From positions 192,001 to 256,000 of the forward strand of contig OZ242311.1 of NCBI GenBank assembly GCA_965207885.1: a stretch of 64,000 nt of DNA. The letters are read 5' to 3'. A model generated the notes under the pieces. That model ran no database searches, was not told the DNA's origin, and worked only from the letters and a program-made list of their open reading frames with translations. Of the stretch, positions 13,673 to 62,928 are shown piece by piece. Position 1 is the stretch's first letter, and each line of letters opens with the position of its first letter. The position numbers and the translations under genes were made by a program. Source of the stretch: Candidatus Latescibacterota bacterium. GTDB lineage: Bacteria > Latescibacterota > UBA2968.

Positions 13673-13716
13673 GCGCACTTTTATACTATTTACGGTAAGA
13701 CAGGAAGTTTATAGAA

Positions 13717-18385: not shown

Positions 18386-18404
18386 TTGTTCGCGGCGGGG
18401 TCTT

Positions 18405-19166
18405 ATGATGAGATTTTTTATTTTTGTCGCACTTATTGGTGCCTTTGGTATTGCAGGTGCTCAGGATGTTCCGCCTTATGTTCGAGAGGCTGAAGCGCGC
18501 TATAAACAGGGGGATTATGCAGGTGCGATAGGGTATTTGTTGGCTGTGCCGGGTGTGGCGCAACTCTCACCGAAGCTGACGCCGATGAATCGAGATTCGC
18601 GTGCATGTCTGTTTTTTGATCTGGGCTGTTGTTATCTCGCGGCAGGGGATTCTCTGCGTGCCGATTGGGCATTTCGAGAGGCTTTTGCTTTGAATAATCG
18701 ATTGGATCGGGGATATTTTAAAAATGCAGATCCGGGCGCGTTCTGGTGGGCTTTGTTGCACGGTGAGGAGGCCGCACGTCGCCTGAAGACCAAACGCTTG
18801 TTTTCTGCGATGCGATCTTTGTTCGTTCCCGGATGGGGTCAGTTTTACCGGGGGTATAAGAAAAAGGGATATGTGTTTCTCGGTGCAGTGGTTGGTACGT
18901 CTGTTGCACTGAGTTTTCAGTATCAGAATTTTCAGAGTGCCCGCGATCACTACAATCAGACGAATATATTTCAACATATAAACCAGCGATATACAAATGA
19001 GGATGGGACGCGCTATACCGAGTGGGAGGCGCGTCATCGAGAGGTCAAGTCCAGTGAAAAACGGGTGAATATTCTAATCGGTGTGCTCGGTGCGATTTGG
19101 GTTCTGAATCTATTTGATAGCGTGGTTTTTGAGCCAGCACCTATGGGTTTGACAGTCGCATTTTGA
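18405..19166 (+). CDS. TPR + DUF5683-like protein
   Basis: Signal peptide from ATG 18405; RSLFVPGWGQFYRGYKKKG motif; WVLNLFDS near the C-terminus. Confidence 0.75.
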   Translation: MMRFFIFVALIGAFGIAGAQDVPPYVREAEARYKQGDYAGAIGYLLAVPGVAQLSPKLTPMNRDSRACLFFDLGCCYLAAGDSLRADWAFREAFALNNRLDRGYFKNADPGAFWWALLHGEEAARRLKTKRLFSAMRSLFVPGWGQFYRGYKKKGYVFLGAVVGTSVALSFQYQNFQSARDHYNQTNIFQHINQRYTNEDGTRYTEWEARHREVKSSEKRVNILIGVLGAIWVLNLFDSVVFEPAPMGLTVAF

Positions 19167-19386
19167 TTTTTTTAAATCTATTGTCTTAAACCGGTGTCGT
19201 AAGACTTGGGCAGAATCAGGTAGCAGGGGATGCTTGGCACAACGTTTCGGTTGCGTCCCCGTCTAAAGCAGCGAAGATTGCACCCTGCCCATCGCGTCTT
19301 GTGATTGATGGCAGATATCAGGACCAAACGATGCACAACATCACCAGACCATTTCAGAATCGTCCTATGTAACCTGTTCAGGAATC

Positions 19387-19440
19387 ACTAAAATGAAAAG
19401 AGCGAGTCCTTTTTGACTCGCTCTTATTTTATTTTAAATA
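19387..19440. repeat. Island repeat copy 1 (TAAAATG-hairpin; bidirectional-terminator-like)
   Basis: AAGAGCGAGTC-CTTTTT-GACTCGCTCTT, perfect 11-bp stem at 19398-19425. Confidence 0.9.
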
Positions 19441-19827
19441 CTTTGTTGATGACAACCAAAACCTTCTGGATCTTGGCTCAAGCATGCCCTGCGTGTTTTA
19501 AGCAGAGGGTTAAGTTCCCCCTCCTAGGCAATCAGCTTTCAGAGTCAGTCCCACCCCGCCAGTCCAACTTCCAGTAACCATTTCTTAACCTCCTATATCC
19601 ATTCACCAATCTCCAGTATCCAACCTCTGCTTCTTATTCGTCATGGTTGGTCAACGGATAGTAGAAGGTGGGCCAGGGATGTCCCAAAAGTGCGACAGGA
19701 ATGTCCTACCTGAACCCTTTTACTGCGAATCACATTTTTCAAATCCAGAAAATTTTTCAGGAATAAATTATTGTAATAAAAATACATATAAAAAAATGGG
19801 AATATATGTCACCAATGCAATTTAAAG

Positions 19828-19843
19828 TGGCACATATTTCGCT
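19828..19843 (+). promoter_or_regulatory. Candidate sigma54 (-24/-12) promoter
   Basis: TGGCACATATTTCGCT, GG-N10-GC; imperfect palindrome TGTCCC-N6-GCGACA upstream at 19680-19697 as a possible UAS. Confidence 0.55.
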
Positions 19844-20057
19844 CTTAAGTTTTGCAGGAATACAGCATTGCCAAATAAAATACAGTGAACAGGTTATTCT
19901 AACCTTAAAGAAAGGAGGTACCACAATGTCACGGAGTTTCATCGTGCTGCTATATATCCCACCTCAAAAATGAAAGGAGGCTATGAAACATTGCAGGTCG
20001 TAATTCATCGCAATTTTATTGCAGGATAACCTTACAAGCTGTTATAGGAGAATCGTC

Positions 20058-21383
20058 ATGAAAAAGCGAATCAGGACAAATCGACTGCACAGATATATCC
20101 TTGCCTCGGGGCTCATCATGGTGAGCTTTGGGATATGGATAAGCTGCTCCAAAGATGCTTCCGTCTCCAGCATAGCCCCGACCTCAGCCGACGATAGCGG
20201 CTCCGGTCAAAGATTGGTTGGAACAAAGCCTGCTGTTGGGGGTTCAAATTATGCCGACTTTCATCCACAGACTGGTGTAAACTACGATCCCTTTGCGAAT
20301 ATGACCTTAGAAGAGCGAAGGACTGCCATTGGTGGCCCGGATGCTGCTGAAAAGTATCTCCGAATAATGGCGAAACAACTTGCCAGAGTCATGGCCGATG
20401 CTAAAACCCGCACAATTCTCCACAGTGTCGTTCCCGACCTGGAACAAGGCGAGATCCATATCTCTAAAATAGCCGACGAATTTCCTCAATTCTTGGAGAA
20501 ATTCTCCGACGGCTTCAGGGATGCTGTAGCCAACGGAGCCATATCGGGCAATTTGGCAAATTTGATCAAAGACGACAAATCGGATTCCAAAACGATATAT
20601 AAAGCCTCAAAAGCCTTGTTCGAGTTAGAGATAGCGGTTTCAAATCCCCCTGGGAAAACATGGAATCCCGCACAACCCATTCCAGTATTTTTTGCCCCTA
20701 TTGATGATGAAAGTGCCACTGTCATAGAAGGGATAGACACCAATTTACAATCCATCTCCGTTCCCGCTGGAGGTGATACAGCTCCTTATACCTGCCTGGT
20801 GCTGAACCTCGATGAGGACTTACCTTTGTTCTCTAAGGATGTTAATGTATCATCCGTTCCGCAACACGAAAGTTTATGGACATGGCAGAACATCCTGAAT
20901 TCCTTCAGCCTCACCTCTCCTGCCTATGCACACTACCCACCGAGTCCATTCGACGACGACCCTGAGGATCCACATGACCCTTGTTATGGTGAAGATATTA
21001 TAGCACCTGTGGACAGAGTTGTAATGTACTACGATCATGAAGACTGGCCCATGGGAGCACCTGAGATTTTTATGGGAATTATATGGCGTCAGGTCAATGA
21101 ACCTGTTGAACCATATCGAACAACCGAGGAACAACTCGAAGATCTGGATGAGGAGAATGTATGGTATACAGACTTCGCGGACTTAAGGGCTCGGCATGGG
21201 ACATGCGGGGGCAGTGGTACTTTAGAAATTGTGTATATCGAGGAAATGGATCCTTGGGGTGCAGATGACTTAGGCAGATGGACTAATGTGACCATTCCTA
21301 CCGGGGGAGCTACTCCAAATCGGAAAGACCTGACAACCAATGATGTCCGCTTGAGGATTCGGCGAACTACTGACGACACATAG
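20058..21383 (+). CDS. Lipoprotein, DUF3103-like
   Basis: ATG after AGGAG; lipobox WISC; motifs PVFFAPIDDE..IEGID and DHEDWPMGAPEIF resemble DUF3103 by recollection. Confidence 0.55.
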   Translation: MKKRIRTNRLHRYILASGLIMVSFGIWISCSKDASVSSIAPTSADDSGSGQRLVGTKPAVGGSNYADFHPQTGVNYDPFANMTLEERRTAIGGPDAAEKYLRIMAKQLARVMADAKTRTILHSVVPDLEQGEIHISKIADEFPQFLEKFSDGFRDAVANGAISGNLANLIKDDKSDSKTIYKASKALFELEIAVSNPPGKTWNPAQPIPVFFAPIDDESATVIEGIDTNLQSISVPAGGDTAPYTCLVLNLDEDLPLFSKDVNVSSVPQHESLWTWQNILNSFSLTSPAYAHYPPSPFDDDPEDPHDPCYGEDIIAPVDRVVMYYDHEDWPMGAPEIFMGIIWRQVNEPVEPYRTTEEQLEDLDEENVWYTDFADLRARHGTCGGSGTLEIVYIEEMDPWGADDLGRWTNVTIPTGGATPNRKDLTTNDVRLRIRRTTDDT

Positions 21384-21404
21384 ATTGACAATCCTTCTAT
21401 TTTC

Positions 21405-21432
21405 GGGGCAAATTGGATATTTGCCCCTTTTT
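21405..21432 (+). terminator. Intrinsic terminator
   Basis: GGGGCAAAT-TGGAT-ATTTGCCCC followed by TTTTT. Confidence 0.75.
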
Positions 21433-21453
21433 CTGCCCAATAAGGAGTAAAAC

Positions 21454-22125
21454 ATGAAATACGCCATGAGTATCCTGGTCTTGTTGATAATGTCTTATTC
21501 TGCACCTATTTTCGGACAGCACATAGTCGCTATCCGGTGGGGTGGCAATATGACAAAAATCGGTGGTTTTGATCATCATGGTGCGCCGCGCAGAAGTATG
21601 AGGATAGGCGCCTCTGTAACCGTTCCAATACAGAACCGCTTCAGCCTTCAAGCTCATGGCGACTATGTCCCAAAAGGAGCAGGAGAGGACGATTTTTATT
21701 ATTATACCGGATTATACATTGACTACATCGAACTTTCAGGATTGGGAGCTTTTACAGTCTTCGCTCCTTCTCGGGGATCCTCTTTGTCTATGTCTATACT
21801 CGCCGGGCCTACGATAGCATTTAAGATCAAAAACCGAGGAGAAGAAATACTGGCAAAAAGATACGGGCAGGGACAAGATCGCTTTGACTTCAAATCTATA
21901 GACTTTGGTTTTGCTGGGGGGATCGGTACACAGATAGCAATTTTCAAACCATGGATAGTCACAACAGAGATTCTATACACCAGGAGCATCCAATCTATCA
22001 ACAAAACCACTTTCTATATCGTAGATTACGATTCTCACACAGCAGAAAAACGTGGCCTGATGAACCACGCCCTTTCCTTCTCTATTGGGCTCGGTTTTTC
22101 TTATGGCAGAAGAACGGGAGGTTAA
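21454..22125 (+). CDS. Outer-membrane beta-barrel (PorT/porin family)
   Basis: Signal peptide; DYVPKG, IDYIEL, ILAGP, DFGFAGGIG, C-terminal FSIGLGF. Confidence 0.8.
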   Translation: MKYAMSILVLLIMSYSAPIFGQHIVAIRWGGNMTKIGGFDHHGAPRRSMRIGASVTVPIQNRFSLQAHGDYVPKGAGEDDFYYYTGLYIDYIELSGLGAFTVFAPSRGSSLSMSILAGPTIAFKIKNRGEEILAKRYGQGQDRFDFKSIDFGFAGGIGTQIAIFKPWIVTTEILYTRSIQSINKTTFYIVDYDSHTAEKRGLMNHALSFSIGLGFSYGRRTGG

Positions 22126-22138
22126 AATAAAATCTGTC

Positions 22139-22660
22139 ATGTCAACGTTGGTGTTTCTGCCTATCGTTCTGGTCTTGTGTCGCACGGATGATGCACACGC
22201 CCAGGATCAATTCAAACGTGCCGAAGCCTCCCTCGCGATGGGCAGACATGTCGAGATCAATGCGTTAGACGATTTTGGGTTACAGGATAACAAAATGTAT
22301 CTGGCAGGACACCTGCTCTATAACTTTTCTGCCACGCAGTCCATCGGTGTGAGGTTTGGCCGCACAGCCCATCCGAGGATTGAATGGTTTGCTACATATC
22401 GGTATAATTGGCGACAAAGACAGCCCACACGTATTTACTTTGAGGTTGGATTGGGTGCCAACGAGCCTCTTGAATCCTTTTTCAACAAAGGTATGCGGTT
22501 TTCTATGGCTTTCGCAGTGGGGATAAAGCGTTTTTTGGGGGAACATTGGTCTTTGAGCCTTGAATCGAGGGGCGTGGGCTTTACGCAGAAAAAGGATCCA
22601 TTTACAGATGAAATAGTGACTGTCCATATACTCTCATTCGCATTGGGATACCTGTTCTAA
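22139..22660 (+). CDS. Outer-membrane beta-barrel protein
   Basis: Signal ending AHA; amphipathic strands; terminal LGYLF. Confidence 0.65.
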   Translation: MSTLVFLPIVLVLCRTDDAHAQDQFKRAEASLAMGRHVEINALDDFGLQDNKMYLAGHLLYNFSATQSIGVRFGRTAHPRIEWFATYRYNWRQRQPTRIYFEVGLGANEPLESFFNKGMRFSMAFAVGIKRFLGEHWSLSLESRGVGFTQKKDPFTDEIVTVHILSFALGYLF

Positions 22661-22688
22661 CACGCAATGAAAGCGATTTTATATTTCG

Positions 22689-22739
22689 CAAATGAAAAGA
22701 GCGAGTCTTTTTAGGCTCGCTCTTTTTTTATTAAAATGC
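22689..22739. repeat. Island repeat copy 2
   Basis: AAATGAAAAGAGCGAGTCTTTTTAGGCTCGCTCTTTTTTTATTAAAATGC. Confidence 0.9.
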
Positions 22740-23068
22740 CTGGTCATCATCATTACGAGTGTGCCGCAATGTTGTTTAAGGTGTGTGGAGACCCTGATGG
22801 TCACGACCTCATTCACCATCGCGTCCCTCAACTGTGTGAATTGTATAAAAAAAATTCTCGACAACGAGCAGCAAAAAATAGAAATTATTCATCAAGCCAA
22901 CTCTCTTACAGGTTGGTGATACGATCGGAGGCATACGTTTGCTTTGACGGGTGAAGTATGCCTTCTCTTTTTATTTTTTATTCCGCAAAATAAGCCATAT
23001 CATGTAATCCCGCAATTCAAGACGAAAATATAGCCATCCTGATGAGACCAGAATCTCAAGGTGGTACG

Positions 23069-24196
23069 ATGAACACGCAAAACGAGCACAGAGACCAAAC
23101 CCTCACAGCACTTGAGGAGGCGGCAAGCCATTACAAAGCGATCCTGGAAACGACTGTTGACGCGATTATCACAATTGACAGTCAGGGAATTGTACAAACA
23201 TTCAATTCCGCTGCCGAGAAGATATTCGGCTACTGCGCCGAAGAAGTCATTGGAAACAATGTCAAGATGCTGATGCCCGCGCCCTATCGCAGTGAACACG
23301 ATGGCTATATCGGTAGATATTTAGAGACGGGCGTACCTAAAATTATTGGAATAGGGCGTCAAGTGACTGGCCTGCGTAAAGATGGGACTGAATTTCCAAT
23401 GGATCTGGCTGTCAGTGAGGTCCCCTTAAAAGACAAGCGATTATTTGCTGGCATTATCCGCGACATGACAGAGCGCATACTGTTGGAGGAGCAATTGGTG
23501 CAATCAACCAAACTCGCAGCCGTGGGTAGATTGATTAGCGGGATTGCACATGAGGTGAACAATCCCGTGAGCATTATCAAACTCCATATCGCCAATGTGA
23601 TGCAAAATATCGAAAGTCAAAAATTGCCAGAAGACCTGATCGAGACACTAAGGGTCATTCAACGCCAGAACAATAAGGTCGGGCAGATCATATCGGAGCT
23701 ACAGGCTTTTTCCAGGCAGGGATATTTCAGCCCTGACTGGATCAATGTCAACCAGATCGTGCATACGGCCTTGAGACTGGTTGAAAATACGCTGCAAAAT
23801 CAGGACATTGTGTATCAAGCCGAATTGGCAGACAGTTTGCCCAAAGTGTTTTTGGATCCCATACGCATTGAGCAGGTGTTGTTGAATCTGTTTAACAATG
23901 CGATTGAAGCGATGCCCGATGGCGGTGTTTTGACCGTATCAACGACACTGGAGACAGACCAAACAGATGAAGATTGGATGGTGGTCCGGATAAGAGATAC
24001 AGGCACAGGCATTGAGGAAGAACATCTCAGCCATCTATTTGATCCGTTTTTTACAACCAAAGAAGTGGGTGAAGGAACCGGCCTGGGTCTTTCGGTCAGT
24101 TATGGTTTAATTCAAGAGCACAAAGGCCGAATTGAGGTAAGCAGTCAACCGGGCAAAGGCAGTGAGTTCCAGATTTACCTTCCCGTAACGGAGTAA
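23069..24196 (+). CDS. PAS sensor histidine kinase, FixL-like heme-PAS, soluble
   Basis: MLMPAPYRSEHDGYIGRYLETG..IIGIGR..GLRKDG; H-box AHEVNNP; DTGTGI, GTGLGL; alternative start 23042. Confidence 0.92.
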   Translation: MNTQNEHRDQTLTALEEAASHYKAILETTVDAIITIDSQGIVQTFNSAAEKIFGYCAEEVIGNNVKMLMPAPYRSEHDGYIGRYLETGVPKIIGIGRQVTGLRKDGTEFPMDLAVSEVPLKDKRLFAGIIRDMTERILLEEQLVQSTKLAAVGRLISGIAHEVNNPVSIIKLHIANVMQNIESQKLPEDLIETLRVIQRQNNKVGQIISELQAFSRQGYFSPDWINVNQIVHTALRLVENTLQNQDIVYQAELADSLPKVFLDPIRIEQVLLNLFNNAIEAMPDGGVLTVSTTLETDQTDEDWMVVRIRDTGTGIEEEHLSHLFDPFFTTKEVGEGTGLGLSVSYGLIQEHKGRIEVSSQPGKGSEFQIYLPVTE

Positions 24197-24201
24197 AAGA
24201 G

Positions 24202-25557
24202 ATGAAAAAAGAGAAAATCCTCATCATTGATGACGAGCCGGATATGTTGCGCGGTTGCCAGAAGTTTCTGGAGACAGCGGGGTACGCTGTTGTCATAGCA
24301 GAATCAGGTGAGGATGGTCTCGCGTTGTTCGAGACGGAAAATCCCGATCTAATCATTGTGGATTTGAAGATGCCCGGAATGGACGGGATGGCTGTGCTTC
24401 AAAGCATTATGGCACGCGATCAAGAGGCTGTTGTGATTGTCTTTACCGGATATGGAACCATTGAGAGTGCAGTCAAAGCGATCAGAGCAGGCGCATTCGA
24501 CTTTGTTCAGAAACCATTTGATCCAGATGCATTTTTAATTGTAATAGAACGGGCATCGAAACTGCGGCGTGTGAGGGAGGAGAACAGTGCTCTCAAGCAA
24601 ATGCTGGATACGCGATTCCGGTTCGAAAACATCATCGGGAACAGTGAGGCGATCACTCAGGTATTTGATTTGATGCGAAAAATCAGCAATACACCTGCCA
24701 ATGTCCTGATCACAGGGGAGAGCGGAACGGGCAAGGAACTGGTGGCTCAGTGTATTCACGCCAATAGCAAGCGGAGCCACAAGCCGTTTGTGCCGCTCAA
24801 CTGTGGGGGCCTGCCAGAGAATCTGGTTGAAAGTGAGATATTTGGTCATACAGAGGGGGCATTCACAGATGCGAAACAGAACCGCGTCGGGTTAATCGAA
24901 CACGCTAAGGGTGGGACATTTTTTCTCGATGAAATCGGGGAATTGCCCATGCCCCTTCAGGTGAAGTTCTTGCGCGTTTTGGAAGACCACAAAATTCGCA
25001 GGTTGGGAAGCAATGAGGAGATAGAGATCGATATCCGTCTCATATCAGCGACCAATCGAAATATCGAGGCGTTGATTGGAGAGGGCAGGTTTCGAGAAGA
25101 TTTATTTTATCGAATCAACACATTTGAGATTCACCTGCCACCTCTCAGGGAACGGCAGGGAGATATTCAACTTCTTGCCCATCACTTTTTGAACTACTTT
25201 GCCGAGACCTCTAAAAAAGCGGTTCAAGGGATTTCCACCGAGGCGATGGATGTGTTGTGCGAATATACCTATCCAGGCAATGTGCGAGAATTGATGCATG
25301 TGATGGAACGCGCCGTTGCCCTGTCAGAAGAAGGTCGTGAAATTACGCCTGAATTGTTCCCAGAGCCTATTGGGGGTAGCCTGGGGATAGAGACACAGAC
25401 TAAAGGCCACTTAAAAGCGAGGGTCGCAATGTTTGAAAAACATATAATCCAGGATGTACTCAAGAAACACGCAGGCAATATCACGCATGCGGCTAAAGAA
25501 TTGGGGTTGACCCGCGATGGTTTAATAAAAAAGATGGCGCGTCTAAAGATGCGTTAG
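24202..25557 (+). CDS. Sigma54-dependent response regulator (NtrC/AtoC family)
   Basis: REC domain DLKMPGMDG; Walker A GESGTGKE; GAFTDA; FLDEIGE; PGNVREL; Fis-type HTH. Confidence 0.95.
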   Translation: MKKEKILIIDDEPDMLRGCQKFLETAGYAVVIAESGEDGLALFETENPDLIIVDLKMPGMDGMAVLQSIMARDQEAVVIVFTGYGTIESAVKAIRAGAFDFVQKPFDPDAFLIVIERASKLRRVREENSALKQMLDTRFRFENIIGNSEAITQVFDLMRKISNTPANVLITGESGTGKELVAQCIHANSKRSHKPFVPLNCGGLPENLVESEIFGHTEGAFTDAKQNRVGLIEHAKGGTFFLDEIGELPMPLQVKFLRVLEDHKIRRLGSNEEIEIDIRLISATNRNIEALIGEGRFREDLFYRINTFEIHLPPLRERQGDIQLLAHHFLNYFAETSKKAVQGISTEAMDVLCEYTYPGNVRELMHVMERAVALSEEGREITPELFPEPIGGSLGIETQTKGHLKARVAMFEKHIIQDVLKKHAGNITHAAKELGLTRDGLIKKMARLKMR

Positions 25558-25737
25558 CAAATTGGACATGACCTTGTGAGGTGTATAATTTTTTCGTGGT
25601 TTCTTTTTTAATCGTATAAAAAATTATATACTCCGCAGAAAGCGACAACTTATAGCACCTGAAACATAAAATTTTATCTTTTTGTTTTTCAAGCACTTGA
25701 GCATTTTCAAGTGCTTTTTTTGTTTTAGATGAATTTA

Positions 25738-25753
25738 TGGCACGCATCTTGCT
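25738..25753 (+). promoter_or_regulatory. Sigma54 (-24/-12) promoter
   Basis: TGGCACGCATCTTGCT matches TGGCAC-N5-TTGCW; upstream IR AAGCACTTGA...TCAAGTGCTT (25691-25716) overlapping an IHF-like site. Confidence 0.8.
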
Positions 25754-25804
25754 TTATAGAATGTGCGAGAGAATAATAACAATCAGATTTTACTGAGGTG
25801 ACTT

Positions 25805-26008
25805 ATGGTTATCCAGGAGCCTTTAACAAAACGTCTGGCATATCGGTCTCTGATTTATGCCATGTTGGGCGACAAAACGCGATCTGAAGCATTGCGCGCA
25901 ACGATGAACCGACTGAATCATCAAAGAGCAGGTTTAGAATGTCAGTCAAGGAAAGACGATTCGGCAAAATCTTACCCCGGACCACAGGATACTATCTTTG
26001 AACGTTAA
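25805..26008 (+). CDS. Small hypothetical protein (67 aa), first gene after the sigma54 promoter
   Basis: GAGGTG SD + ATG; no recognised domain; may be a remnant. Confidence 0.45.
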   Translation: MVIQEPLTKRLAYRSLIYAMLGDKTRSEALRATMNRLNHQRAGLECQSRKDDSAKSYPGPQDTIFER

Positions 26009-26121
26009 TCGCATATCTTTGGGCGCGCTATCGCTATTAACTGACAATTTTGTTGCAGCGGCGTCGTGATCTGGAAGTGGCATCATAAGGGATCTATGTG
26101 CCTTAAACAGAGAGGTGAGAA

Positions 26122-27015
26122 ATGTATAAAATTCCAGACTTCAAAATTCCGGATCGGCTTAACCTGGACACAGACTGGAGCATTGGTGAGACAGCATTTG
26201 AGAGAATCGCAACCACGCTTCTTCAGATGTCCCCGGTAGAAAAAATTCTCGAATTTGGAGGTGGTCCGAGTTCTATCCGCCTGGCAATGGCGTTTTCTGA
26301 AACTCACATTCTGTCTGTGGAAGGCGACTGGCGAAATTTTGCAGAAACCATGAATCTGATGCAAACATTCTGGGATAAACGCAATCTATCAATCAAATAT
26401 CGTCCAATTACACTTGAATCTTATGGAGATGCGGAATTTTTGACTTATGAAGACGGGATGTTTTGGGAGGAAGAGATAGATTGCGTGATTATTGATGGTC
26501 CGCCGGTCTATACCTTGCGAGGTCGAGAAGCATGTCTCTACCAGGTTTATGACCAGATCAGGATAGGTGGTCTGGTCATTCTCGACGATTTCAGAAGGTC
26601 TTATGAGAAGCAAATTGTCGAGAACTGGCTATCCGTCTATCCCGGCAGTTTTACAGTGGAAATGATCCACGAAGACCACCATCTGGCCGTGCTGCGTAAG
26701 GTCAGATCCACGACACCGTGTTGGGATGCGCCTTATAGACTTTCGGATGTTCAGTCTGTCAGTAAAATGCTCGCCCGCATTACACAGGCATTATCGCTTG
26801 TTGATGATGTGTATTTGAGCGTGCTGGCTAAAGCGAATAACTGCTATGAGACAGATCTGATTGACCTGTTCAATACCCTTCGCAACATCTATGGGATTAC
26901 ACCTGAGCATATCCATAAGTTCGCGGATCGAAATTCTACACTCCCACCAGACGCGAAAAATAGAAAACAGAATGCCTGTTATATGACAATTTTCAATACG
27001 TTTTTTCGGAACTGA
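26122..27015 (+). CDS. Class I SAM-dependent methyltransferase (Methyltransf_24-like)
   Basis: ILEFGGGPSS, VIIDGPP, GGLVILDD. Confidence 0.8.
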   Translation: MYKIPDFKIPDRLNLDTDWSIGETAFERIATTLLQMSPVEKILEFGGGPSSIRLAMAFSETHILSVEGDWRNFAETMNLMQTFWDKRNLSIKYRPITLESYGDAEFLTYEDGMFWEEEIDCVIIDGPPVYTLRGREACLYQVYDQIRIGGLVILDDFRRSYEKQIVENWLSVYPGSFTVEMIHEDHHLAVLRKVRSTTPCWDAPYRLSDVQSVSKMLARITQALSLVDDVYLSVLAKANNCYETDLIDLFNTLRNIYGITPEHIHKFADRNSTLPPDAKNRKQNACYMTIFNTFFRN

Positions 27016-27033
27016 ATGTACAAGGAGGAAGAT

Positions 27034-27681
27034 ATGAGATACTTTATAGGTATTCTGATATTTGCGGTCCTGTCCTATCCCGCCTCGATTTTTGGGCAAC
27101 CCACACTCTCTATCAGGGAGGGCCTGAATCTGGCAACCCTGAGTGGAGAGATAATGGATAGGCGTCCAGTGAATGCACGCGCCACCCTCAAGATGGGTGT
27201 TTCCGGGACTTTTCCAGTACGGGGCAGATTTGGCTTTCAACTCAATGGTGACTATGTGCAAAAGGGTGCTCATGACTTATTATACGACTTCATCATAGAA
27301 GTTGACTATATTGAGTTTTCAGGGCTGTTCAATATCACACTTATCTCACCCTATCATGCACCTTCTTTATTTATACTCGCAGGGCCATCAGTGGCATTCA
27401 AAGTTAGGAGCGAGGGCGAACAGTTAGCGAGAAGACACTGGAGAGACCGCTTCGAGTTCAAGACCACAGACTTTGGTATCATTGTAGGACTTGGCACACA
27501 AATGACATTTTCTGAAGCGATGATACTCAAGGCAGAATTGCTATACACCGAGGGCATTCGATCTATCAACAAAACCGCTCCCTATGATCCTGATTTCAAT
27601 GTAGAAACCAGTATCAAAAACCGGGGGATTTCTTTCTGCATCGGCCTCGGTTTTCCTTATGGACGAAGAACGGGAGGTTAA
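27034..27681 (+). CDS. Outer-membrane beta-barrel (PorT/porin family), paralog of 21454-22125
   Basis: AGGAGGA SD + ATG 27034; same motifs and the same C-terminal GLGFxYGRRTGG. Confidence 0.8.
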   Translation: MRYFIGILIFAVLSYPASIFGQPTLSIREGLNLATLSGEIMDRRPVNARATLKMGVSGTFPVRGRFGFQLNGDYVQKGAHDLLYDFIIEVDYIEFSGLFNITLISPYHAPSLFILAGPSVAFKVRSEGEQLARRHWRDRFEFKTTDFGIIVGLGTQMTFSEAMILKAELLYTEGIRSINKTAPYDPDFNVETSIKNRGISFCIGLGFPYGRRTGG

Positions 27682-27720
27682 AATAGACTCTGTCATGTCA
27701 ACATATATTCGCAGGATCCT

Positions 27721-27939
27721 CGTGGTAGCACTGACTACGAATCGCCTCTGGCACGGAATGGAGATATAGATGGGGACGGAGATGTCGATTTCTCTGATTT
27801 TCTACTTTTTACTTCTGCCTTTGGCACAATTGAAGGGGGAATAGGATACAATCCCGCGGCAGATTTAGACGGGGATGGTGCGGTCGTATTCTCAGACTTT
27901 CTGATATTTGCCAGTGCCTTTGGCAAATCCGTGGGTTAG
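27721..27939 (+). pseudogene. Orphan dockerin/EF-hand-like C-terminal domain remnant
   Basis: GDIDGDGDVDFSDFLLFTSAFG...ADLDGDGAVVFSDFLIFASAFGKSVG*; no convincing in-frame start; absent from the ORF track. Confidence 0.8.
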
Positions 27940-27960
27940 GAGTATAGTATGACACACAAT

Positions 27961-27994
27961 AAACAGCCCAAGGACTGACCCCCTGAGCTGTTTT
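27961..27994 (+). terminator. Intrinsic terminator-like hairpin
   Basis: AAACAGCCCAAGG...CCTGAGCTGTTTT. Confidence 0.55.
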
Positions 27995-28002
27995 CTATTT
28001 CT

Positions 28003-28124
28003 CTAAAATGAAAAGAGCGAGTCCTTTTAGGCTCGCTCTTTTTTGCTTAAAATGCTTCGTTGTGCTGCACAGAGCATAATTCAATACGGTTCGTTGACAC
28101 CCTGTTAGATTTGGGCTATATTGC
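28003..28124. repeat. Island repeat copy 3, long form (hairpin + sigma70 promoter)
   Basis: 122 nt, 7 mismatches to copy 4 by eye; TTGACA(28094)-N17-TATATT(28117). Confidence 0.95.
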
Positions 28125-28169
28125 TTGAAATGATCAAGATCACCTGAAAATCAGTTCTGGAGTTTAATA

Positions 28170-28550
28170 ATGGCAACATATACAGTTGATGAATTGGTCA
28201 AAGCTGCTGAGCAATTGCCTCAAACAGATTTGGAAAATTTGACAGCGCAGGTACTTACACTCAAGGCAAGACGCACGGCACCAGAATTGTCGCAAAATGA
28301 AGCCGGATTGCTCCGGAATATCAACCGGGGAATGCCCGATGAATTACAGAATCGATATCGAGAACTTATTGCTATCAGACGCGCAGGAACACTGACTGAA
28401 TCCGAACATGCCGAATTGCTTCACCTGACAAATCAGGTTGAAAAACATGATACAGAACGATTGAAATATCTTACCGAACTTGCACGTATTCGAAAAATTT
28501 CTCTGACCGACCTTTTGGATGAACTCGGCATTGAACCAGCCTATACATAA
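28170..28550 (+). CDS. Small helical protein, putative antitoxin/partner of the HNH nuclease
   Basis: LLRNINRG...RYREL...LTESEHAELL...RLKYLTELARIR; a type commonly found upstream of HNH genes. Confidence 0.65.
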   Translation: MATYTVDELVKAAEQLPQTDLENLTAQVLTLKARRTAPELSQNEAGLLRNINRGMPDELQNRYRELIAIRRAGTLTESEHAELLHLTNQVEKHDTERLKYLTELARIRKISLTDLLDELGIEPAYT

Positions 28551-28553
28551 CCT

Positions 28554-28982
28554 GTGAACGCGAGACTGAAACAAGCTGTTATTCATCGTGCTCAGGAATG
28601 CTGTGAATACTGTCAAAGCCAAGCTCGTTTTGCAACCCACCCATTCTCTATTGAGCATATTCATCCACTTAGCCGAGGAGGCGAAGATACGCTCAATAAT
28701 TTGGCTTTGGCTTGCCAGGGATGTAATAACTACAAATACACCAAAGTCGAGGCACTTGATCCCGTCAATGGCCAGCCCGTTCCACTCTTTCATCCAAGAC
28801 AACAACGTTGGATAGATCATTTTAGATGGGCGGACCGCTTCACCCACATTGTCGGAATTACGCCAACAGGTCGTGCAACTGTGGAGGCTTTACAACTGAA
28901 CCGTAGAGGTCTGGTAAACTTGCGCCGAATCCTATTTGCCGCAGGTGTACACCCCCCATCGAATTCTAACCGCAGTGAATAA
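28554..28982 (+). CDS. HNH endonuclease
   Basis: CEYC...IEHIHPLSRGG...NLALACQGCN; LFHPR; TPTGRATV. Confidence 0.93.
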   Translation: MNARLKQAVIHRAQECCEYCQSQARFATHPFSIEHIHPLSRGGEDTLNNLALACQGCNNYKYTKVEALDPVNGQPVPLFHPRQQRWIDHFRWADRFTHIVGITPTGRATVEALQLNRRGLVNLRRILFAAGVHPPSNSNRSE

Positions 28983-29030
28983 ATCTCCATAACTCCAAAG
29001 ATCTGATTGGCAAACACAAAAACCCTCACA

Positions 29031-29158
29031 TTTGAACTAAAATGAAGAGAGCGAGTCCTTTTTGGCTCGCTCTTTTTTGCTTAAAATGCTTCGTTGTGCT
29101 GCACAGGGCATAATTTAATGCGGTTCGTTGACACCCTTTTGGATTTGGGCTATATTGC
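29031..29158. repeat. Island repeat copy 4, long form (hairpin + sigma70 promoter)
   Basis: TTGACA(29128)-N17-TATATT(29151). Confidence 0.95.
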
Positions 29159-29193
29159 ACAAAATATCATCCAAAAAAGAAGGATCTTATACA

Positions 29194-29565
29194 TTGACGG
29201 AGACACTTACGATGACACAGGAACAAAATGAGAAAGTCCAAACCATTGTCCGCGAGACCATTGCGGAACGTTTCTCGTCGGACGAGTTCGTGTTCGACCC
29301 CATTGTAGTGGTGCCCATGGTCGATGAATTTGGTTCTGACGCCAGCGGCGAAACGTATCTTCGCATCATTATTGTCTTCGATGGCGATCAGAAGCACCTC
29401 GACTCCAGTTGGACATCCAGTTTTATCAGACGCATTCGCCCGAAGCTGATTGAGGAAGGCATAGAAGAGTTCCCCAGCCCGTCATGGGTTGAGAAATCTG
29501 AGTGGTGGAGTCTGTATCCCAAATGGCGACAACAACACCCAGAGGTAACTATTGAAACCGCTTAA
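29194..29565 (+). CDS. Hypothetical protein, possible minimal nucleotidyltransferase-like antitoxin
   Basis: Directly upstream of, and overlapping, the HEPN gene; D..GETYLRIIIVFD..FPSPSWV; start TTG 29194 or ATG 29212 (the ORF-track start lies inside the promoter). Confidence 0.5.
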   Translation: MTETLTMTQEQNEKVQTIVRETIAERFSSDEFVFDPIVVVPMVDEFGSDASGETYLRIIIVFDGDQKHLDSSWTSSFIRRIRPKLIEEGIEEFPSPSWVEKSEWWSLYPKWRQQHPEVTIETA

Positions 29566-30028
29566 TTTTATTGCAACAGCCCGGGATTTGGTTCATGCGA
29601 ACAGCAAAGGCAGGACACGAGAGACGAACATCCGCAGGGCTGTCAGCACGACGTACTACGCGCTATTCCACTGTCTCGCAACTTCCAACGCCAATATGCT
29701 CGTTGGCGGTCCCGGCGCCAATCGCAGTCAACCGGCATGGCGTCAAGCATACCGGGCATTGCAACATGGAACAGCGAGGCAACGCTGCGAACACCAAGGT
29801 ATCATCATAAAATTCCCGGACGAAATTCAGGACTTCGCAGAACGATTTGCTGATATGCAAAAAAAACGTCACGAAGCGGATTACGACCCTGATACGACCT
29901 TTTTCAAATCTGATGTCATTCAAGACATCACGGATGCAGAAGATGTTATCCGCTGCTTCAACAGCGTTCCCGCCCGGGACCGGCGTGCCTTTGCAGTTTA
30001 CGTGTTGCTACCTCTCCGAACTGACTAA
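29552..30028 (+). CDS. HEPN-domain protein (putative toxin)
   Basis: RRAVSTTYYALFH and RHEADYD motifs. Confidence 0.75.
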   Translation: MKPLNFIATARDLVHANSKGRTRETNIRRAVSTTYYALFHCLATSNANMLVGGPGANRSQPAWRQAYRALQHGTARQRCEHQGIIIKFPDEIQDFAERFADMQKKRHEADYDPDTTFFKSDVIQDITDAEDVIRCFNSVPARDRRAFAVYVLLPLRTD

Positions 30029-30132
30029 AACCGCTCGTTACGCGGTATGTCCAGATAAATCCTAAATGAGCGTAATCTTCAATATCCAGTAACCTCAACT
30101 TCCGCAACTCAAAAGACTTTGCAATTAAAAAA

Positions 30133-31709
30133 ATGCCCAAAACTAACGAAATCGCCTTCAATGTCCGGTTGTTAGACGTACTACAAACCAAGCACCCGCG
30201 CTGGCGTGACCATGTCGGTGTGGAGCAACGGGATGTCCTCCGTGAGACCGCCCTGCAACCGGATATTGTCATTCGTCCTCCAAGCGGTGTACCAGTCATT
30301 CTCGAGACAGAGTTTATGCCAGCGCGTAGCGTCGAGGCAGACGCTACGGCTCGTTTGGGGAAATTCTTGGAGTACAACGGCGACTTGATAGAGCAGACTA
30401 TAGCTGTCCAGGTCCCACAAGAACTGAGCCGTGCGCCACAGGGAGACTTAGAGCGGCAAATCAAGGCCTCCGAGTTCCGCTATTGTACCTTTTCACTGCA
30501 AGAAAAAGATACCGTCGTGCGCTGGCCATCTGAGGGTTGGCTCACCGGCAGTATTGATGATCTTGCTGCCTGCATTGAAAATGTCTCGCTATCTGAACGT
30601 CTGCTTGCCGAAGGAACGCAAATTCTGGAGCAGAGCATAGGCGAGGCCGCTGGCAAACTGCGCGAAACAGCCAGCATACAAGTGCTGGAGAAAATGGCGC
30701 AGTCCCTCCATCAAGAGGATGGCGAGCAAACCTCGCGTATGGCCATGGCCATTGTCGCCAACGCCCTTGTCTTCCACACCGCTATTGTTGACGCACACGG
30801 TATCCCAACCATTGACGAATTGCGTATTCCAGGCCGCAATGATGTCAGCAAAAGCCGTTTGCTCGAATGTTGGCAGCATATTCTCGACAACATCAATTAC
30901 TATCCCATCTTCCGCATTGCCTCCGACCTGCTCCTGCCTATCGCTGACAGCACCGCAAACGCGGTTCTCAATCGTCTCGCTCAGGCAGCCGGTGATTTAG
31001 CTGGCTTAGGAGCTACCACCTTGCATGACCTCTCTGGACGCATGTTCCAAAGGCTTATTGCTGACCGGAAGTTTCTCGCCACGTTCTACACACTACCAAC
31101 ATCTGCTGCCCTGCTCGGTGAGTTAGCCGTATCACGCCTCGACGCGGTAACGGATTGTTCCAACCCCGATGCCCTCACCCGTCTCCAAATCGCCGACCTT
31201 GCCTGCGGAACTGGAACTCTGCTCTCGGCGGCGTACCGCGCCCTGGCCTCGCGCCATCGGCGAACTGGCGGTGCCGATCAAGTGCTACACACTCAGATGA
31301 TGGAACGCGCCCTCATCGCTGCCGACATCATGCCAGCCGCAACGCATCTAACCGCGTCCATGCTGTCAAGCACTCATCCGGGCACGATCTTTGGCAACAC
31401 TCGTGTCCACACCCTGCCCTATGGACAGCAAAGCCAGGAAAAGCGGCACGCCATGGCCCTGGGTGCTCTCGACCTCATTGAGGATGACACCGCGCCATCG
31501 CTGTTTGGGACTGGTATTCATGTAGCGCGAGGTACGGGCGCGGATGTGGAAGCAGAGGGAAGCCAGGACATGATCCTCCCCCCTGAAACGGCCGATCTTG
31601 TAATTATGAATCCCCCCTTCACACGACCTACCAACCACGAAAAGGCCGAGGTACCAGTGCCATCATTTGCCGGGTTGGGCACAAGCAAAGAAGAACAGCA
31701 GGCCATGTC
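30133..31709 (+). pseudogene. Truncated fused restriction endonuclease / N6-adenine methyltransferase (type IIG-like)
   Basis: N-terminal PD...E (LQPDIVI..VILETE); motif I DLACGTGTLL; motif IV NPPF; the ORF ends about 30 aa later in IS256-derived sequence. Confidence 0.75.
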
Positions 31710-31820
31710 CAAGATGAGTGGATCACAGGCAGACGCTATCTGGACATGACGGATTGGATATAAACGCTCTGACCCCTATTTCACGGAGCTATAATTTTAC
31801 AGAACTTTTTGGACTTGACC
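31710..31820 (+). mobile_element. IS256-family right-end remnant
   Basis: Reads QDEWITGRRYLDMTDWI* (IS256 transposase C-terminus), then IR-like TTTTACAGAACTTTTTGGACTTGACC. Confidence 0.7.
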
Positions 31821-31919
31821 TAAAAAATTTCTATTATTTTATGCCCATTGTCGAGGATTTTTTTTCACACAATTCACACATTTGAGATTACACGATGAGT
31901 TAGCATAAGGTCCCGCACT

Positions 31920-31998
31920 TTTGAACTAAAATGAAAAGAGCGAATCCTTTTGGGCTCGCTCTTTTTTTGCTAAAATGCTTCATTGTGCTGCGCGGGGC
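31920..31998. repeat. Island repeat copy 5 (medium form, truncated before the promoter)
   Basis: TTTGAACTAAAATGAAAAGAGCGAATCCTTTTGGGCTCGCTCTTTTTTTGCTAAAATGCTTCATTGTGCTGC. Confidence 0.9.
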
Positions 31999-32023
31999 GA
32001 CTATATGGATATCCTAAAAAATT

Positions 32024-32782
32024 TTGAAGAACGTCCAGATCATCTACGATACGCATACACGGGATTTCCAAGCCCGTCTGGTGGTCGAAGTGGATGTTTC
32101 TGATAAATCCGGAGAGGCCACCGTTGGTGTAGATATAGGCGAAGATTGGCTCATCGCCGCAGATTTCTGTGACGGCTCTCAGTATCTGGTCTGTGGACGG
32201 ATGCTCAAGTCCACACGCCGATATTGGCAGAAGGTCAGAGCAAAGGTCAAACCGCCCAGCCAGGACCGTCCCAAGATGTCGAGGCGCTATCGCCAGATCG
32301 CCAGAAAAGAAGCCCGACAAATCACACATGCCCTCCATATCGCCAGCAGACGGTTTGTGGTGGATGCGTATGCCGATAAGGGTGTAGGCACTATCATCCT
32401 GGGAGACCTGACCGGCATCCGATCAAGCATCGCTTATGGCAAAAGGATGAATCAACGCCTGCACGCCTGGCCATATGCCAGACTCAGCGCGATGATTGAA
32501 TACAAGGCTGCACTGCTTGGCATAAAGGTCAAAGTCGTCTCAGAGAAATATACCTCGCAGACTTGCCCACAATGTAATATAAGAAAGAAATCCAATCGCA
32601 AACATCGTGGTTGGTACTCCTGTCATTGCGGCTTTGAAGGTCAAGCGGACCTGGTAGGTGCTTTCAATATCCATCGGCAAGTATCTGGGGTTTCCAGTAG
32701 TGGGCGTTCGGCGCGCCCCGTGGTCTTGGTGTATGACCACCATACGGTCCACGAAGTTGCAAGTTCTCGGAAGGCAGCCTGA
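32024..32782 (+). pseudogene. tnpB: 5'-truncated TnpB (IS200/IS605 family)
   Basis: VGVDIGE, LGDL, YTSQTCPQC Zn ribbon, ADLVGAFNI; lacks the N-terminal HTH/WED region. Confidence 0.85.
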
Positions 32783-32801
32783 TAAAGGACAACCTCCGGA
32801 A

Positions 32802-32830
32802 TCCCTTGACTTCAGTCAAGGGAGCACGTC
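32802..32830 (+). mobile_element. IS200/IS605 right-end palindrome
   Basis: TCCCTTGACT-TC-AGTCAAGGGA then GCACGTC. Confidence 0.75.
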
Positions 32831-32932
32831 GAGAACGTGGTGCTTTTGTCTTCGACGCTAAGATCAGTGCGGATTTTGGGATTGTCTTTTGTTGCTAAAA
32901 TCACACTGGCCCTCATAGCATCCTCTTACCTA

Positions 32933-33869
32933 GGTAGTGTCTGAAAAGTCGTAAAGTATGTATTTTAGTTGCAGCATACGCCCTAAACCAAGGAGTATGA
33001 TATGCAACGGAGATATGAACTGCGCGACGAGGCTTGGCATCTGATCCAAGACCTGTTCCCACCGCCGAAGAAGATGGGTCGTCCCCGTCGGGATGATCGT
33101 ACATTATTCAACGGGATCTTCTGGATATTGTGTTCAGGTGCAGCTTGGCGCGACCTGCCAGAACGATATGGTCCTTGGCAGACAGCCTTTGACCGATTCT
33201 GCAAATGGAAACAGGATGGCACCTTTGATCGCATTGTAGAAAAGCTACATCTCAAATTGGGTGAAGATGGTCTTTTAGATTATGCGACCTGGATGATGGA
33301 TGCAACCCATATTCGAGCCACACAAGCCGCGGCAGGAGCGAAAAAAAAAGGGCAAAAAGGGTGAAGAAGAGCCCCCAGATCACGCTTTAGGACGCTCTCG
33401 TGGCGGTTTGACCACGAAAATCCATCTTCTTTGCGATGCAGTCGGGCATCCTTTAGCAGTGGATCTTCTCCCTGGTAACCAGTCAGAATCCACACAGGCT
33501 GAAAGGCTACTGTCAAAGGTATGCATACCCACCAAACGAGGGCGTCCAAGAAACCGACCCAAGTATCTGGTAGCTGATAAATCTTATGATGTCTCACGCA
33601 TCAGAGTCTATCTACGCAAACGGGGTATCAAGGCTGCTATCCCAAACAAGGCGATTCCCAAAGGCAGAAAACGGCGTAAGAGAGGACCACGGCCTAAGTG
33701 TGATAAAAGATTATATGCCAAACGCAATATCGTGGAGCGTCTCTTTGGTTGGCTTAAACACTGCCGACGGATTGTGACCCGATTTGAAAAAAAGGCGACT
33801 CATTTTCTCACTATGGTCAAGCTGGCCTGTATCAGACAACTCTTCAAAGCTTACTTTTCAGACACTACC
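32933..33869 (+). mobile_element. IS5-family element copy 1 (937 bp; two ORFs, -1 frameshift)
   Basis: 17-bp IR GGTAGTGTCTGAAAAGT/ACTTTTCAGACACTACC; TA duplication; orfA 33002-33364, orfB to 33872; A9G slippery site at 33341. Confidence 0.95.
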
Positions 33870-33872
33870 TAA
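33002..33872 (+). CDS. IS5-family transposase (programmed frameshift)
   Basis: WRDLPERYGPWQT, DATHIRA, GRSRGGLTTKIH, ADKSYD, RNIVERLFGWLK. Confidence 0.9.
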
Positions 33873-45742: not shown

Positions 45743-46059
45743 TAATCTTCTCTATCTGATTCTTGTAATGTTTTGAATTGCGCTTCCTGGTTTTGCAATT
45801 GCTCTTCGAGCTTGCTAATCGTCGCGATTTGACCTTGAACCGCTTCAGTTTGTGCCTCAATGGCGGCCTCATGGTCTTTGAGTTCTTCGTATATTTGTCC
45901 GCCAAGTTCAGTAAATGCATCGTGAATAGCGTGGCGGGTGCGTGCAATATCGAGGCGTGCGCGGCCGAGTCTGCCCAGATATTCGGCTTTTTCCGCTGCT
46001 GTAGCCGCGCCATCGCGAAGACCTTGCTTAATTTTTTCCCAAAGAGTTTCGGAATTCAT
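45742..46059 (-). CDS. Hypothetical coiled-coil protein
   Basis: Downstream of the BMC gene, GGAG SD, heptad pattern. Confidence 0.7.
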   Translation of the reverse strand: MNSETLWEKIKQGLRDGAATAAEKAEYLGRLGRARLDIARTRHAIHDAFTELGGQIYEELKDHEAAIEAQTEAVQGQIATISKLEEQLQNQEAQFKTLQESDRED

Positions 46060-61727: not shown

Positions 61728-61768
61728 GTGACTACTCCCAACGGTAGAGCAGTTGGGCTTCTTGGCGG

Positions 61769-62893: not shown

Positions 62894-62899
62894 AATAAA

Positions 62900-62928
62900 A
62901 ATATATATTTATGTGTCGTTTATGTCAA
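62900..62928 (-). promoter_or_regulatory. Sigma70 promoter giving a probably leaderless tnpB mRNA
   Basis: TTGACA-N17-TATATT; the ATG begins 7 nt after the -10 box; no SD. Confidence 0.7.

Follow-up and report, generated by a model that had tools for sequence, protein, structure and literature searches.

A predicted terminator-promoter repeat frames putative toxin-antitoxin and defence cassettes beside nadE in a genus of Candidatus Latescibacterota

How hotspots of defence and toxin-antitoxin (TA) genes that lack an integrase are assembled and turned over is treated as an open question in the discussion of Johnson et al. 2023 (PMC10250203). A locus of this kind lies in a 64-kb stretch of a Candidatus Latescibacterota genome (contig OZ242311.1, positions 192,001 to 256,000; here called the window, with coordinates counted from its first nucleotide), where a hairpin repeat recurs five times between gene modules on one side of nadE. 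An earlier note made from the sequence alone took this repeat for a site at which modules are added or exchanged, in a manner functionally like an integron. We compared the repeat and its surroundings with the rest of the 6.2-Mb genome (G000) and with relatives in the genus (cited by G numbers, and individual loci by L numbers). The hairpin belongs to a composite unit comprising a predicted transcription terminator and a predicted promoter (the TP unit). The locus is probably a hotspot of tandem expression cassettes carrying TA and restriction-modification (R-M) genes, which is remodelled by homologous recombination between the TP repeats.

The composite repeat and its distribution

A search of the window with the half-site AAAAGAGCGAGTC, allowing up to 2 mismatches, gave 10 matches, which are both arms of five hairpins lying in the same orientation (Table 1). 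Shuffled sequences gave 1.56 matches on average, and 10 was reached in 0/100 shuffles. No additional hairpin copy was found in the window; the number, orientation and positions of the copies given in the earlier note were thus borne out, together with its remark that the repeat occurs nowhere else in this stretch. A repeat search of the window returned one five-copy family of 45 nt, with 82-100% identity to the family reference. When the five copies were aligned, about 55 nt proved common to all, further downstream sequence was common to copies 3-5, and copies 3 and 4 were alike well beyond the hairpin (129 nt at 92%). The 7-mer TAAAATG is exact on both sides of the hairpin in copies 3-5, as had been noted. 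Copy 1 has TAAAATG upstream and TTTAAAT downstream, and copy 2 has CAAATG upstream and TAAAATG downstream. An Rfam scan, which the note had proposed as a check, gave no family above the gathering score in the 64-kb window; the sub-threshold matches to copies 2 and 5 were to small RNA models containing terminators.

To define the unit, every copy in the window was aligned with those at the corresponding position in relatives. It is ~135 nt long and consists of CTAAAATG, the hairpin, a run of six or seven T residues, a middle part of ~50 nt, and the sequence TTGACA-17-TATATT. Copies 3 and 4 alone contain the whole unit. The terminator part is all that copies 1 and 2 have, and copy 5 is truncated at unit position 78, after the middle part, with loss of the promoter. 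The 55-nt core given in the earlier note agrees with the length common to all five copies; the complete unit extends well beyond the hairpin and is present in two of them. The left edge of the repeat occurs in at least three forms, one of which has a ~60-nt extension common to nine copies. Beyond TATATTGC the sequence turns cassette-specific, with a weak shared motif persisting in the 5' untranslated region (5'UTR), and the cassette-side (right) edge of the promoter fades by degrees without a sharp end.

The hairpin reads AAAAGAGCGAGTC-loop-GGCTCGCTC followed by T6-7; it has a 13-bp stem, a loop of 4-6 nt and an A-tract before the stem. Its folding energy is -19.5 to -22.8 kcal/mol, and 0/200 shuffles fold as well. 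When the substitutions in 23 hairpin copies are read as + strand RNA they give 25 G.U pairs and 13 mismatches; read as - strand RNA they give 10 G.U pairs and 28 mismatches. The hairpins are positioned behind the ends of the dockerin-like gene F4, of HNH and R-M genes and of other genes. Judged by its stem-loop and U-tract, the hairpin is a canonical intrinsic (Rho-independent) terminator, and it presumably terminates transcription in vivo. An identical 28-nt hairpin occurs singly in unrelated phyla (58 of 80 loci among the matches listed; 86 were found), and the hairpin taken by itself therefore appears to be a commonplace terminator solution.

G010 and G008 likewise have a hairpin where copy 2 stands in the window, ahead of the two-component genes. 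In G008 (L028, oriented position 12183) it is flipped with respect to the window hairpin at 22695-22726: the arms are swapped, the loop is complemented and the downstream flank is unchanged. This could be the product of palindrome inversion or of conversion from an inverted copy.

The promoter part of copies 3 and 4 provides the two best σ70-like sites in 18 kb, with 11/12 consensus matches. Over all loci, TTGACA-17-TATATT is kept in each of the 19 promoter copies that precede a + strand gene, while the spacer sequence varies. All seven promoter copies that face the 3' end of the convergent F16-nadE genes (F16 is described below) have lost the -10 element: in three it is deleted, two have TATATG, one ATATGG and one TATTCG. 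The hexamers, their 17-nt spacing and their conservation where they are used characterize this element as a putative σ70 promoter, which would be expected to initiate transcription in vivo.

A profile built from 17 full units was used to search the whole 6.2-Mb genome. In addition to the matches at the locus (two full units, two terminator-only copies and the cut copy), there were promoter-only pieces at 1018770 and 4356028 and bare hairpins at 6077926 and 6080275. The genome thus has seven hairpins in total, and relatives have 1-5 each; composite units were found at this locus only, all co-oriented. In the 21 genomes of the genus, 18 matches span 100 or more of the 134 unit nt, and every one of them lies within 16 kb of nadE. 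Outside the genus, a search of 20 genomes belonging to other genera of the family and order did not recover the exact hairpin. The repeat is therefore confined to the locus rather than scattered over the genome as an ordinary repetitive extragenic palindromic (REP) sequence or terminator, an outcome that the earlier note had considered fatal to its proposal.

At both promoter-only sites outside the locus, the copy precedes a TA-like gene pair. The copy at 4356028 precedes a paralog (4356176) of the 126-aa partner of the HNH endonuclease found in the window; the other precedes a DUF433-like and nucleotidyltransferase-like pair (labels assigned by reading N-terminal sequences, without a family search). 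At G000:C1:4356028-4357231 and in L134-L138, the 126-aa partner is kept behind the promoter-only copy and the downstream gene or genes differ between species. The two bare hairpins are located at the 3' ends of two F4-like (dockerin-like) paralogs, which stand in tandem at G000:C1:6076319-6080327 (L008). Their products, of 524 and 738 aa, combine dockerin-like motifs at the N terminus with leucine-rich-repeat-like sequence, and a copy of the hairpin marks the end of each gene. G004, G015 and G019 have comparable pairs of hairpins, spaced by 1.8-2.75 kb. A search of viral contigs gave one hairpin-only match and none for the promoter pattern, and thus no sign of a phage-carried unit. Among metagenome contigs, two short ones contain the unit with a 79-aa-gene cassette (L131, L132) and reveal no new architecture. 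That cassette adjoins a ~1.1-kb sequence with two copies in G000 (404186, 6062184), which is possibly another insertion sequence (IS).

Cassette content and breakpoints in related genomes

The 20 kb beside nadE were taken from 17 relatives and analyzed by gene maps and family searches. nadE is present in 21/21 genus genomes, with 87-98% protein identity, and a hairpin lies beside it in 11/17 relatives. The backbone order is atp operon, epimerase gene, sometimes a two-component system, a gene resembling those for outer membrane proteins (OMPs), F4, and TP units with cassettes, followed on the opposite strand by F16 and nadE. The atp operon, then the OMP gene and then F4 form a conserved left anchor in the relatives. 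F16 is a conserved 170-178-codon open reading frame (ORF) without known family that immediately follows nadE on the nadE strand. It is open in 11/11 relatives, where it occupies the ~500-nt interval between the last unit and nadE (L027-L036), and F16 is lost in the present genome. Since F4 (+) is convergent with an open F16-nadE pair (-), the basal state is a terminator between convergent genes. This single-copy state is seen in G004, G012 and G015.

The number of full units is one each in G004, G012, G015, G002, G010 and G006, two in G017 and in G005, two plus partial pieces in G019, and four in G020; the window has two full and three partial copies. None was found in G009, G014 and the four most distant genomes. 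The same cassettes recur in different subsets among the relatives. Their cargo includes a C5 methylase with a HaeII endonuclease, a PtuB-like HNH endonuclease with its 126-aa partner, a 79-86-aa gene with a PIN gene, DUF433 with DUF5615, a nucleotidyltransferase, a 117-aa and HEPN-like pair, and a large N6-methyltransferase-like gene. By family resemblance these are typical TA and defence genes. The locus is thus a cluster of defence and TA genes at a fixed position, variable among relatives, which is what defines a defence island or hotspot of horizontal gene transfer. The expectation of the earlier note that relatives would differ in cassette number and content at this place was correct.

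Several of these differences have their ends in the unit. G015 has the arrangement F4-TP-F16, and G017 has F4-TP-[methylase+HaeII]-TP-F16; 117 nt of G015 align to both of the G017 units. Window positions 27739-29162, which run from the F4 remnant across the HNH cassette and reach into copy 4, align to G020 12608-14030, and positions 29036-29558, from copy 4 onward, align to G020 16454-16974. These two alignments meet at copy 4, and G020 therefore has two more cassettes (2.4 kb) exactly between them. In an all-against-all comparison, 70/424 alignment-end clusters were at units versus 2.4% expected; the genomes are kin and the ends not independent, so that the binomial p-value overstates this excess. 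Breakpoints in the repeat, as proposed in the note, are accordingly exact in several instances (G017/G015, G020 versus the window), but other rearrangements do not involve the unit. Of the three outcomes that the note had named as refuting its proposal, none was observed. Window copies 3 and 4 agree at 115/122 positions, and either of them agrees with its positional counterpart in G020 at 105-111/122, a pattern that fits gene conversion.

Remodelling by homologous recombination between units would work as follows. In this genus the hotspot occupies the convergent gap between F4 (+) and nadE-F16 (-). The hairpin and U-tract would end transcription of the gene or cassette at the left of a unit, and the σ70 promoter, ~50 nt beyond the hairpin, would drive the cassette at its right. 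A unit on both sides of every cassette could act, for that reason, as portable homology. Homologous recombination between two units would delete the intervening cassettes, and unequal exchange or re-entry of an excised circle could duplicate, re-insert or swap cassettes. The process would be one of general recombination between repeats of ~120-135 nt, with occasional illegitimate events. We infer that the recombination is of the RecA type and not site-specific, and that cassettes have been gained as well as lost. The variable edges of the unit, its varying loop, the replaceable hairpin and the likeness of copies 3 and 4 fit general homologous recombination with gene conversion, and fit a site-specific system less well.

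A number of observations weigh against this explanation. The R-M pair stands elsewhere in G005, inverted and without a unit, and the G019 match to 29212-29565 directly follows the PIN gene. Some losses occurred via microhomologies of 7-10 nt, the scars being ACACCCTTTT in the G004 type, TGTGCTG in G008, and TATA/TGGATATC in G005, G012 and G015. Units within one genome are only 81-94% identical, which sets a limit on homologous recombination and implies that the duplications are old. Contigs of four sequencing runs show the cassette arrangement of the window and no cassette-skipping joint, and at the level of contigs they contain no recombination intermediate or polymorphism. Termination and promoter activity are themselves predictions. 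An RNA-library contig covers 28138-29025 (the HNH cassette), but DNA and RNA-library contigs alike break at the repeats, and the ends of the RNA contig are therefore uninformative as transcript ends; the stretches without RNA-library cover, 30020-31221 and 31823-32423, are no evidence of silence. When TP variants were sorted by neighbouring cassette type they showed no consistent linkage, so that no crossover point was located. The first placement of a new gene between a promoter and a terminator copy is not explained by recombination between units. What stands of the note's site of module addition or exchange is thus the set of cassette differences bounded by units; addition is not demonstrated, and the hairpin does not qualify as a dedicated recombination site. 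Finally, cassette order is largely collinear among the genomes (HNH, then the 79-86-aa gene group, then R-M, then the 29212-type group), and in a nadE tree the multi-cassette genomes G019 and G006 branch first in a clade of 14. From these two observations, differential loss alone could explain most of the differences, although the tree is built on one 1.7-kb gene and 9/15 of its forks are unresolved.

Alternative explanations and known systems

A history of loss alone is the alternative that survives best. It supposes an ancestor with at least four TP-separated cassettes and lineage-specific deletions, by recombination between TP units or by microhomology, of an array now decaying. Cassette order and the early branching of multi-cassette genomes agree with it, and so do two further observations: the TP copies within a genome have diverged like orthologous genes between species, and several cassettes are eroding, the HaeII gene being shortened to 106 or 216 aa (G020 and G019) and the methylase of the window to 538 aa. 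Other findings are difficult to reconcile with loss. In the same weakly resolved tree G017 and G008 are near-identical sisters, and yet they differ in the R-M cassette and in the F4 allele, which speaks for exchange between lineages. In G019 the R-M cassette is present twice and the backbone is duplicated, and copy 4 of the window joins the promoter and 5'UTR of one cassette type to the gene tail of another type seen in G019. We regard loss without gain or exchange as unlikely, even though it would account for much of the pattern.

The TP unit might also be a true docking site, with circles that have one unit re-entering at any unit, either via a recombinase encoded elsewhere or via a pathway stimulated by a cargo nuclease (HNH, restriction enzyme or TnpB). 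We think this decidedly improbable. Were it true, this uncultured phylum would possess an integrase-less functional analogue of the integron, in which captured genes are automatically given a promoter and a terminator.

Very improbable, in our estimation, is an integron-like site-specific system, in which the unit or its 11-6-11 palindrome would be the attachment site of a recombinase encoded elsewhere, circles being excised and inserted at another unit. As in chromosomal integrons and in clusters of attC sites lacking integron-integrases (CALINs), short cassettes, many of them with TA or defence genes, are arrayed in one orientation with a related structured repeat between them, and the content of the array varies among relatives. 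The repeat is moreover locus-specific, and its palindrome has 11-13-bp arms around a 6-nt spacer, a geometry that is presumably common to the core sites of tyrosine recombinases. However, the integron integrase model TIGR02249 had no match over the cut-off in the whole genome, its best matches being two distant Xer-like tyrosine recombinase genes at 0.66 and 1.70 Mb; in the 64-kb window neither a tyrosine nor a serine recombinase was found, and the cassette genes of relatives include no recombinase. The observation in the note that no recombinase gene is visible is accurate for site-specific recombinases, but the window does have transposase genes: two IS5-like copies, an IS4-like gene, and one full and one truncated tnpB.

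Cassettes of integrons are mostly promoterless and are expressed from a common promoter, Pc. Here, each cassette has its own promoter (19/19) and the order is collinear, not shuffled. attC sites fold into imperfect hairpins that contain R''/L''-L'/R' boxes and extrahelical bases, and crossover takes place at a conserved GTT where the cassette begins or ends; by inspection against these features, the present repeat has a near-perfect 13-bp stem, A and T tracts, and no GTTRRRY at the boundaries. The spacer or loop varies between copies in sequence and even in length, the left edge is variable and the right edge gradual, and the contigs contain no joints of the kind that such a system would leave. 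Some cassette boundaries also have another hairpin or none: a different terminator hairpin precedes the promoter in G005 at 16615 and in G006 at 15188, and the promoter stands alone in G006 at 17568, in G008 and in G019 at 15914. The arrays of G020, G019 and G006 are closed by a second type of terminator. This second hairpin, which is conserved and has a C/G-rich stem between A and T runs, lies beside F16 at ~17655-17690 in L032 (G020), ~17590-17625 in L036 (G019) and ~17655-17690 in L034 (G006). The likeness to an integron that had been suggested thus extends to the outcome, a co-oriented and variable array, and not to the mechanics.

Modules mobilized by Xer recombinases (pdif) are bounded by 28-bp XerC-spacer-XerD sites with dif-like arms, in alternating orientation around the modules. 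The sites at this locus differ in being all co-oriented, in having a spacer of 4-6 nt with variable sequence, and in that some boundaries lack the hairpin. The hairpin was also considered as an end of an IS200/IS605 element and was rejected in this role, as the tnpB element is situated on the far side of the unit, within what was once the F16 flank.

That a small mobile hairpin, of the kind of a miniature inverted-repeat transposable element (MITE) or REP sequence, was inserted repeatedly with 7-bp target duplication, the rest being coincidence, is hardly credible: the direct 7-mer around copies 3-5, the flipped hairpin in G008 and the IS200/IS605-type debris adjoining copy 5 would suit it, but dispersed repeats of these classes are unlike a composite unit present at one locus only with so few hairpins in the genome, no Rfam family was recovered above the gathering score, and the two hairpins outside the locus lack the 7-mer. 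Copies at the locus moreover share ~135 nt, far beyond the hairpin, which makes their 7-mers descendants of a single ancestral sequence rather than separate target duplications.

The closest published parallel is insertion with long target duplication, for which Furuta, Abe & Kobayashi (NAR 2010; PMC2853133) give three criteria: the insert is <20 kb and has R and M genes, the direct repeats around it exceed 30 bp and occur once in the comparison genome, and other mobile elements are absent. In the cycle that they propose, insertion is followed by amplification through the repeats and then by release. The C5 methylase and HaeII cassette of G017, 2.1 kb long between repeats of ~117 nt that correspond to a single unit in G015, agrees with this description on all three counts, and the HNH cassette between window copies 3 and 4 has the same geometry, though its cargo is not an R-M pair. 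The cases published there are single insertions with site-specific repeats (PMC2853133). In this genus, by contrast, one ~135-nt sequence is reused serially at one site for unrelated cassettes (TA pairs, HNH, R-M), the repeat is a predicted terminator-promoter that would frame each insert for expression, and the array is kept across the genus.

For core defence hotspots and for hotspots of horizontal gene transfer free of mobile genetic elements, exchange by homologous recombination using the homology of flanking core genes has been proposed (Johnson et al. 2023, PMC10250203; Oliveira et al. 2017, PMC5635113). The present locus resembles these in being a variable block of defence genes at a fixed place between core genes (the atp operon side and nadE) without an integrase. 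It differs in its extra internal homology between every cassette pair, which would allow cassette-by-cassette loss or exchange. Compared with a bidirectional terminator between convergent genes, the unit has the same A-tract, GC-rich stem and T-tract between F4 and F16-nadE, but it is multiplied with a promoter as a cassette boundary and it has a U.G pair that favours the + strand. The titles and abstract openings of the literature searched contained no description of a serial array framed by one TP unit or by such an internal repeat.

If the explanation we favour is correct, the locus is a readable natural example of the turnover of an integrase-free hotspot, in which one conserved unit would serve both as an expression frame (terminator and promoter) and as homology for cassette loss and possibly exchange. 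To the single R-M insertions known for long target duplication it would add a serial form of the process, with mixed cargo and an array found across a genus, and it makes the mechanism testable. The contrast between the promoters kept before genes and those disabled where they face the nadE operon provides a natural experiment on promoter selection, and the unit could be used as a search handle for more small defence and TA genes in Candidatus Latescibacterota.

Features of the window locus

The features from copy 1 to nadE are listed in Table 1. The five unrelated cassette modules of the earlier note were reduced to two by the comparison with relatives: only modules 3 and 4 qualify as true cassettes. 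Modules 1 and 2 belong to the backbone that most relatives have, and module 5 is debris, in which a tnpB truncated at its 5' end and remnants of a lost gene are accompanied by a 939-bp IS5-like insertion absent from other populations.

Table 1. Positions of the repeat copies and neighbouring features in the window
Feature	Position	Strand	Remarks
Repeat copy 1, terminator only	19341..19448	+	unit positions 3-65 at 19385-19448; hairpin 19396-19427; -22.8 kcal/mol
Module 1	20019..22660	+	454-aa protein without family match; OMP beta-barrel-like genes 21454-22125 and 22085-22660
Repeat copy 2, terminator only	22686..22744	+	hairpin 22695-22726
Module 2	23042..27681	+	backbone genes common to G008, G002, G020, G010, G012
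PAS histidine kinase	23042-24196	+	module 2
Sigma-54 response regulator	24202-25557	+	module 2
297-aa gene	26122-27015	+	module 2; weakly methyltransferase-like
OMP-like gene	27016-27681	+	module 2
3' remnant of dockerin-like gene F4	27739..27998	+	F4 has 447-499 aa in relatives; dockerin-like repeats
Repeat copy 3, complete TP unit	27999..28132	+	hairpin 28011-28042, T-run, middle part; -35 28094-28099; -10 28117-28122
HNH cassette	28170..28982	+	126-aa partner 28170-28550; PtuB-like HNH endonuclease 28554-28982
Repeat copy 4, complete TP unit	29035..29168	+	hairpin 29045-29076; -35 29128-29133; -10 29151-29156
117-aa/HEPN-like/methyltransferase cassette	29212..31749	+	true cassette
117-aa protein	29212-29565	+	without known family in family searches
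HEPN-like 158-aa protein	29552-30028	+	structural lead only
N6-adenine methyltransferase-like gene	30133-31749	+	truncated to 538 aa; 966 aa in G019
Repeat copy 5, terminator and middle part	31924..31998	+	hairpin 31934-31965; cut at unit position 78; promoter lost
5'-truncated TnpB element	31999..32832	+	ORF 32024-32782, 252 aa; OrfB_IS605 and TNB domains; IS debris, no cassette
Two short F16 remnants	32833..32925	-	F16 mostly deleted here
IS5-family insertion, 939 bp	32928..33866	+	DUF4096 and DDE ORFs 33002-33364, 33300-33872
nadE, glutamine-dependent NAD synthetase	33869..35596	-	conserved right anchor in the genus

Copy 1 follows a left extension of ~45-60 nt (class A) that precedes the unit in 8 further copies, in relatives, too. 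The module 1 genes are of backbone type and occur in G019 as well, behind the same class A and terminator sequence. At copy 3, the natural 3' end of the F4 remnant runs into the terminator. The HNH gene and its partner form a cassette in G020 and G005 too. For the gene pair that follows copy 4, the label 'MNT-like' given earlier to 29128-29565 found no support in family searches, and the HEPN label of 29552-30028 is retained as a structural lead only. GC content is no discriminator of cassettes, with 0.44-0.54 against 0.51 for the genome.

The island had been placed between a DUF5683-like gene and nadE. As a boundary nadE was upheld, being a conserved anchor, but the DUF5683-like gene (18276-19166) is a second paralog brought by rearrangement. 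The other paralog lies at G000:C1:3955510-3956376 (3.96 Mb, 3.7 Mb away), with 86% protein identity, and orthologs in relatives are never near nadE, from which it follows that the segment 13717-19200 was moved or copied to its present place.

On the right side, the 939-bp IS5-like insertion is absent from the contigs of runs X5 and X7, which have the joint 32927->33867, and the insertion is therefore recent. A second IS5-family copy of ~0.94 kb lies at 44875-45745, and its ORF products are identical to those of the copy at 32928-33866; both copies have DUF4096 and DDE and are apparently frameshifted. The truncated tnpB has no DNA similarity to the full-length tnpB at 61769-62893, and the original left end of the truncated element was not recoverable. 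The full-length gene (-, 374 aa) stands between ORFs that hold the N- and C-terminal halves of an ABC-transporter ATPase domain (60410-63641) and probably splits this gene; about 10 copies related to it are present in the genome.

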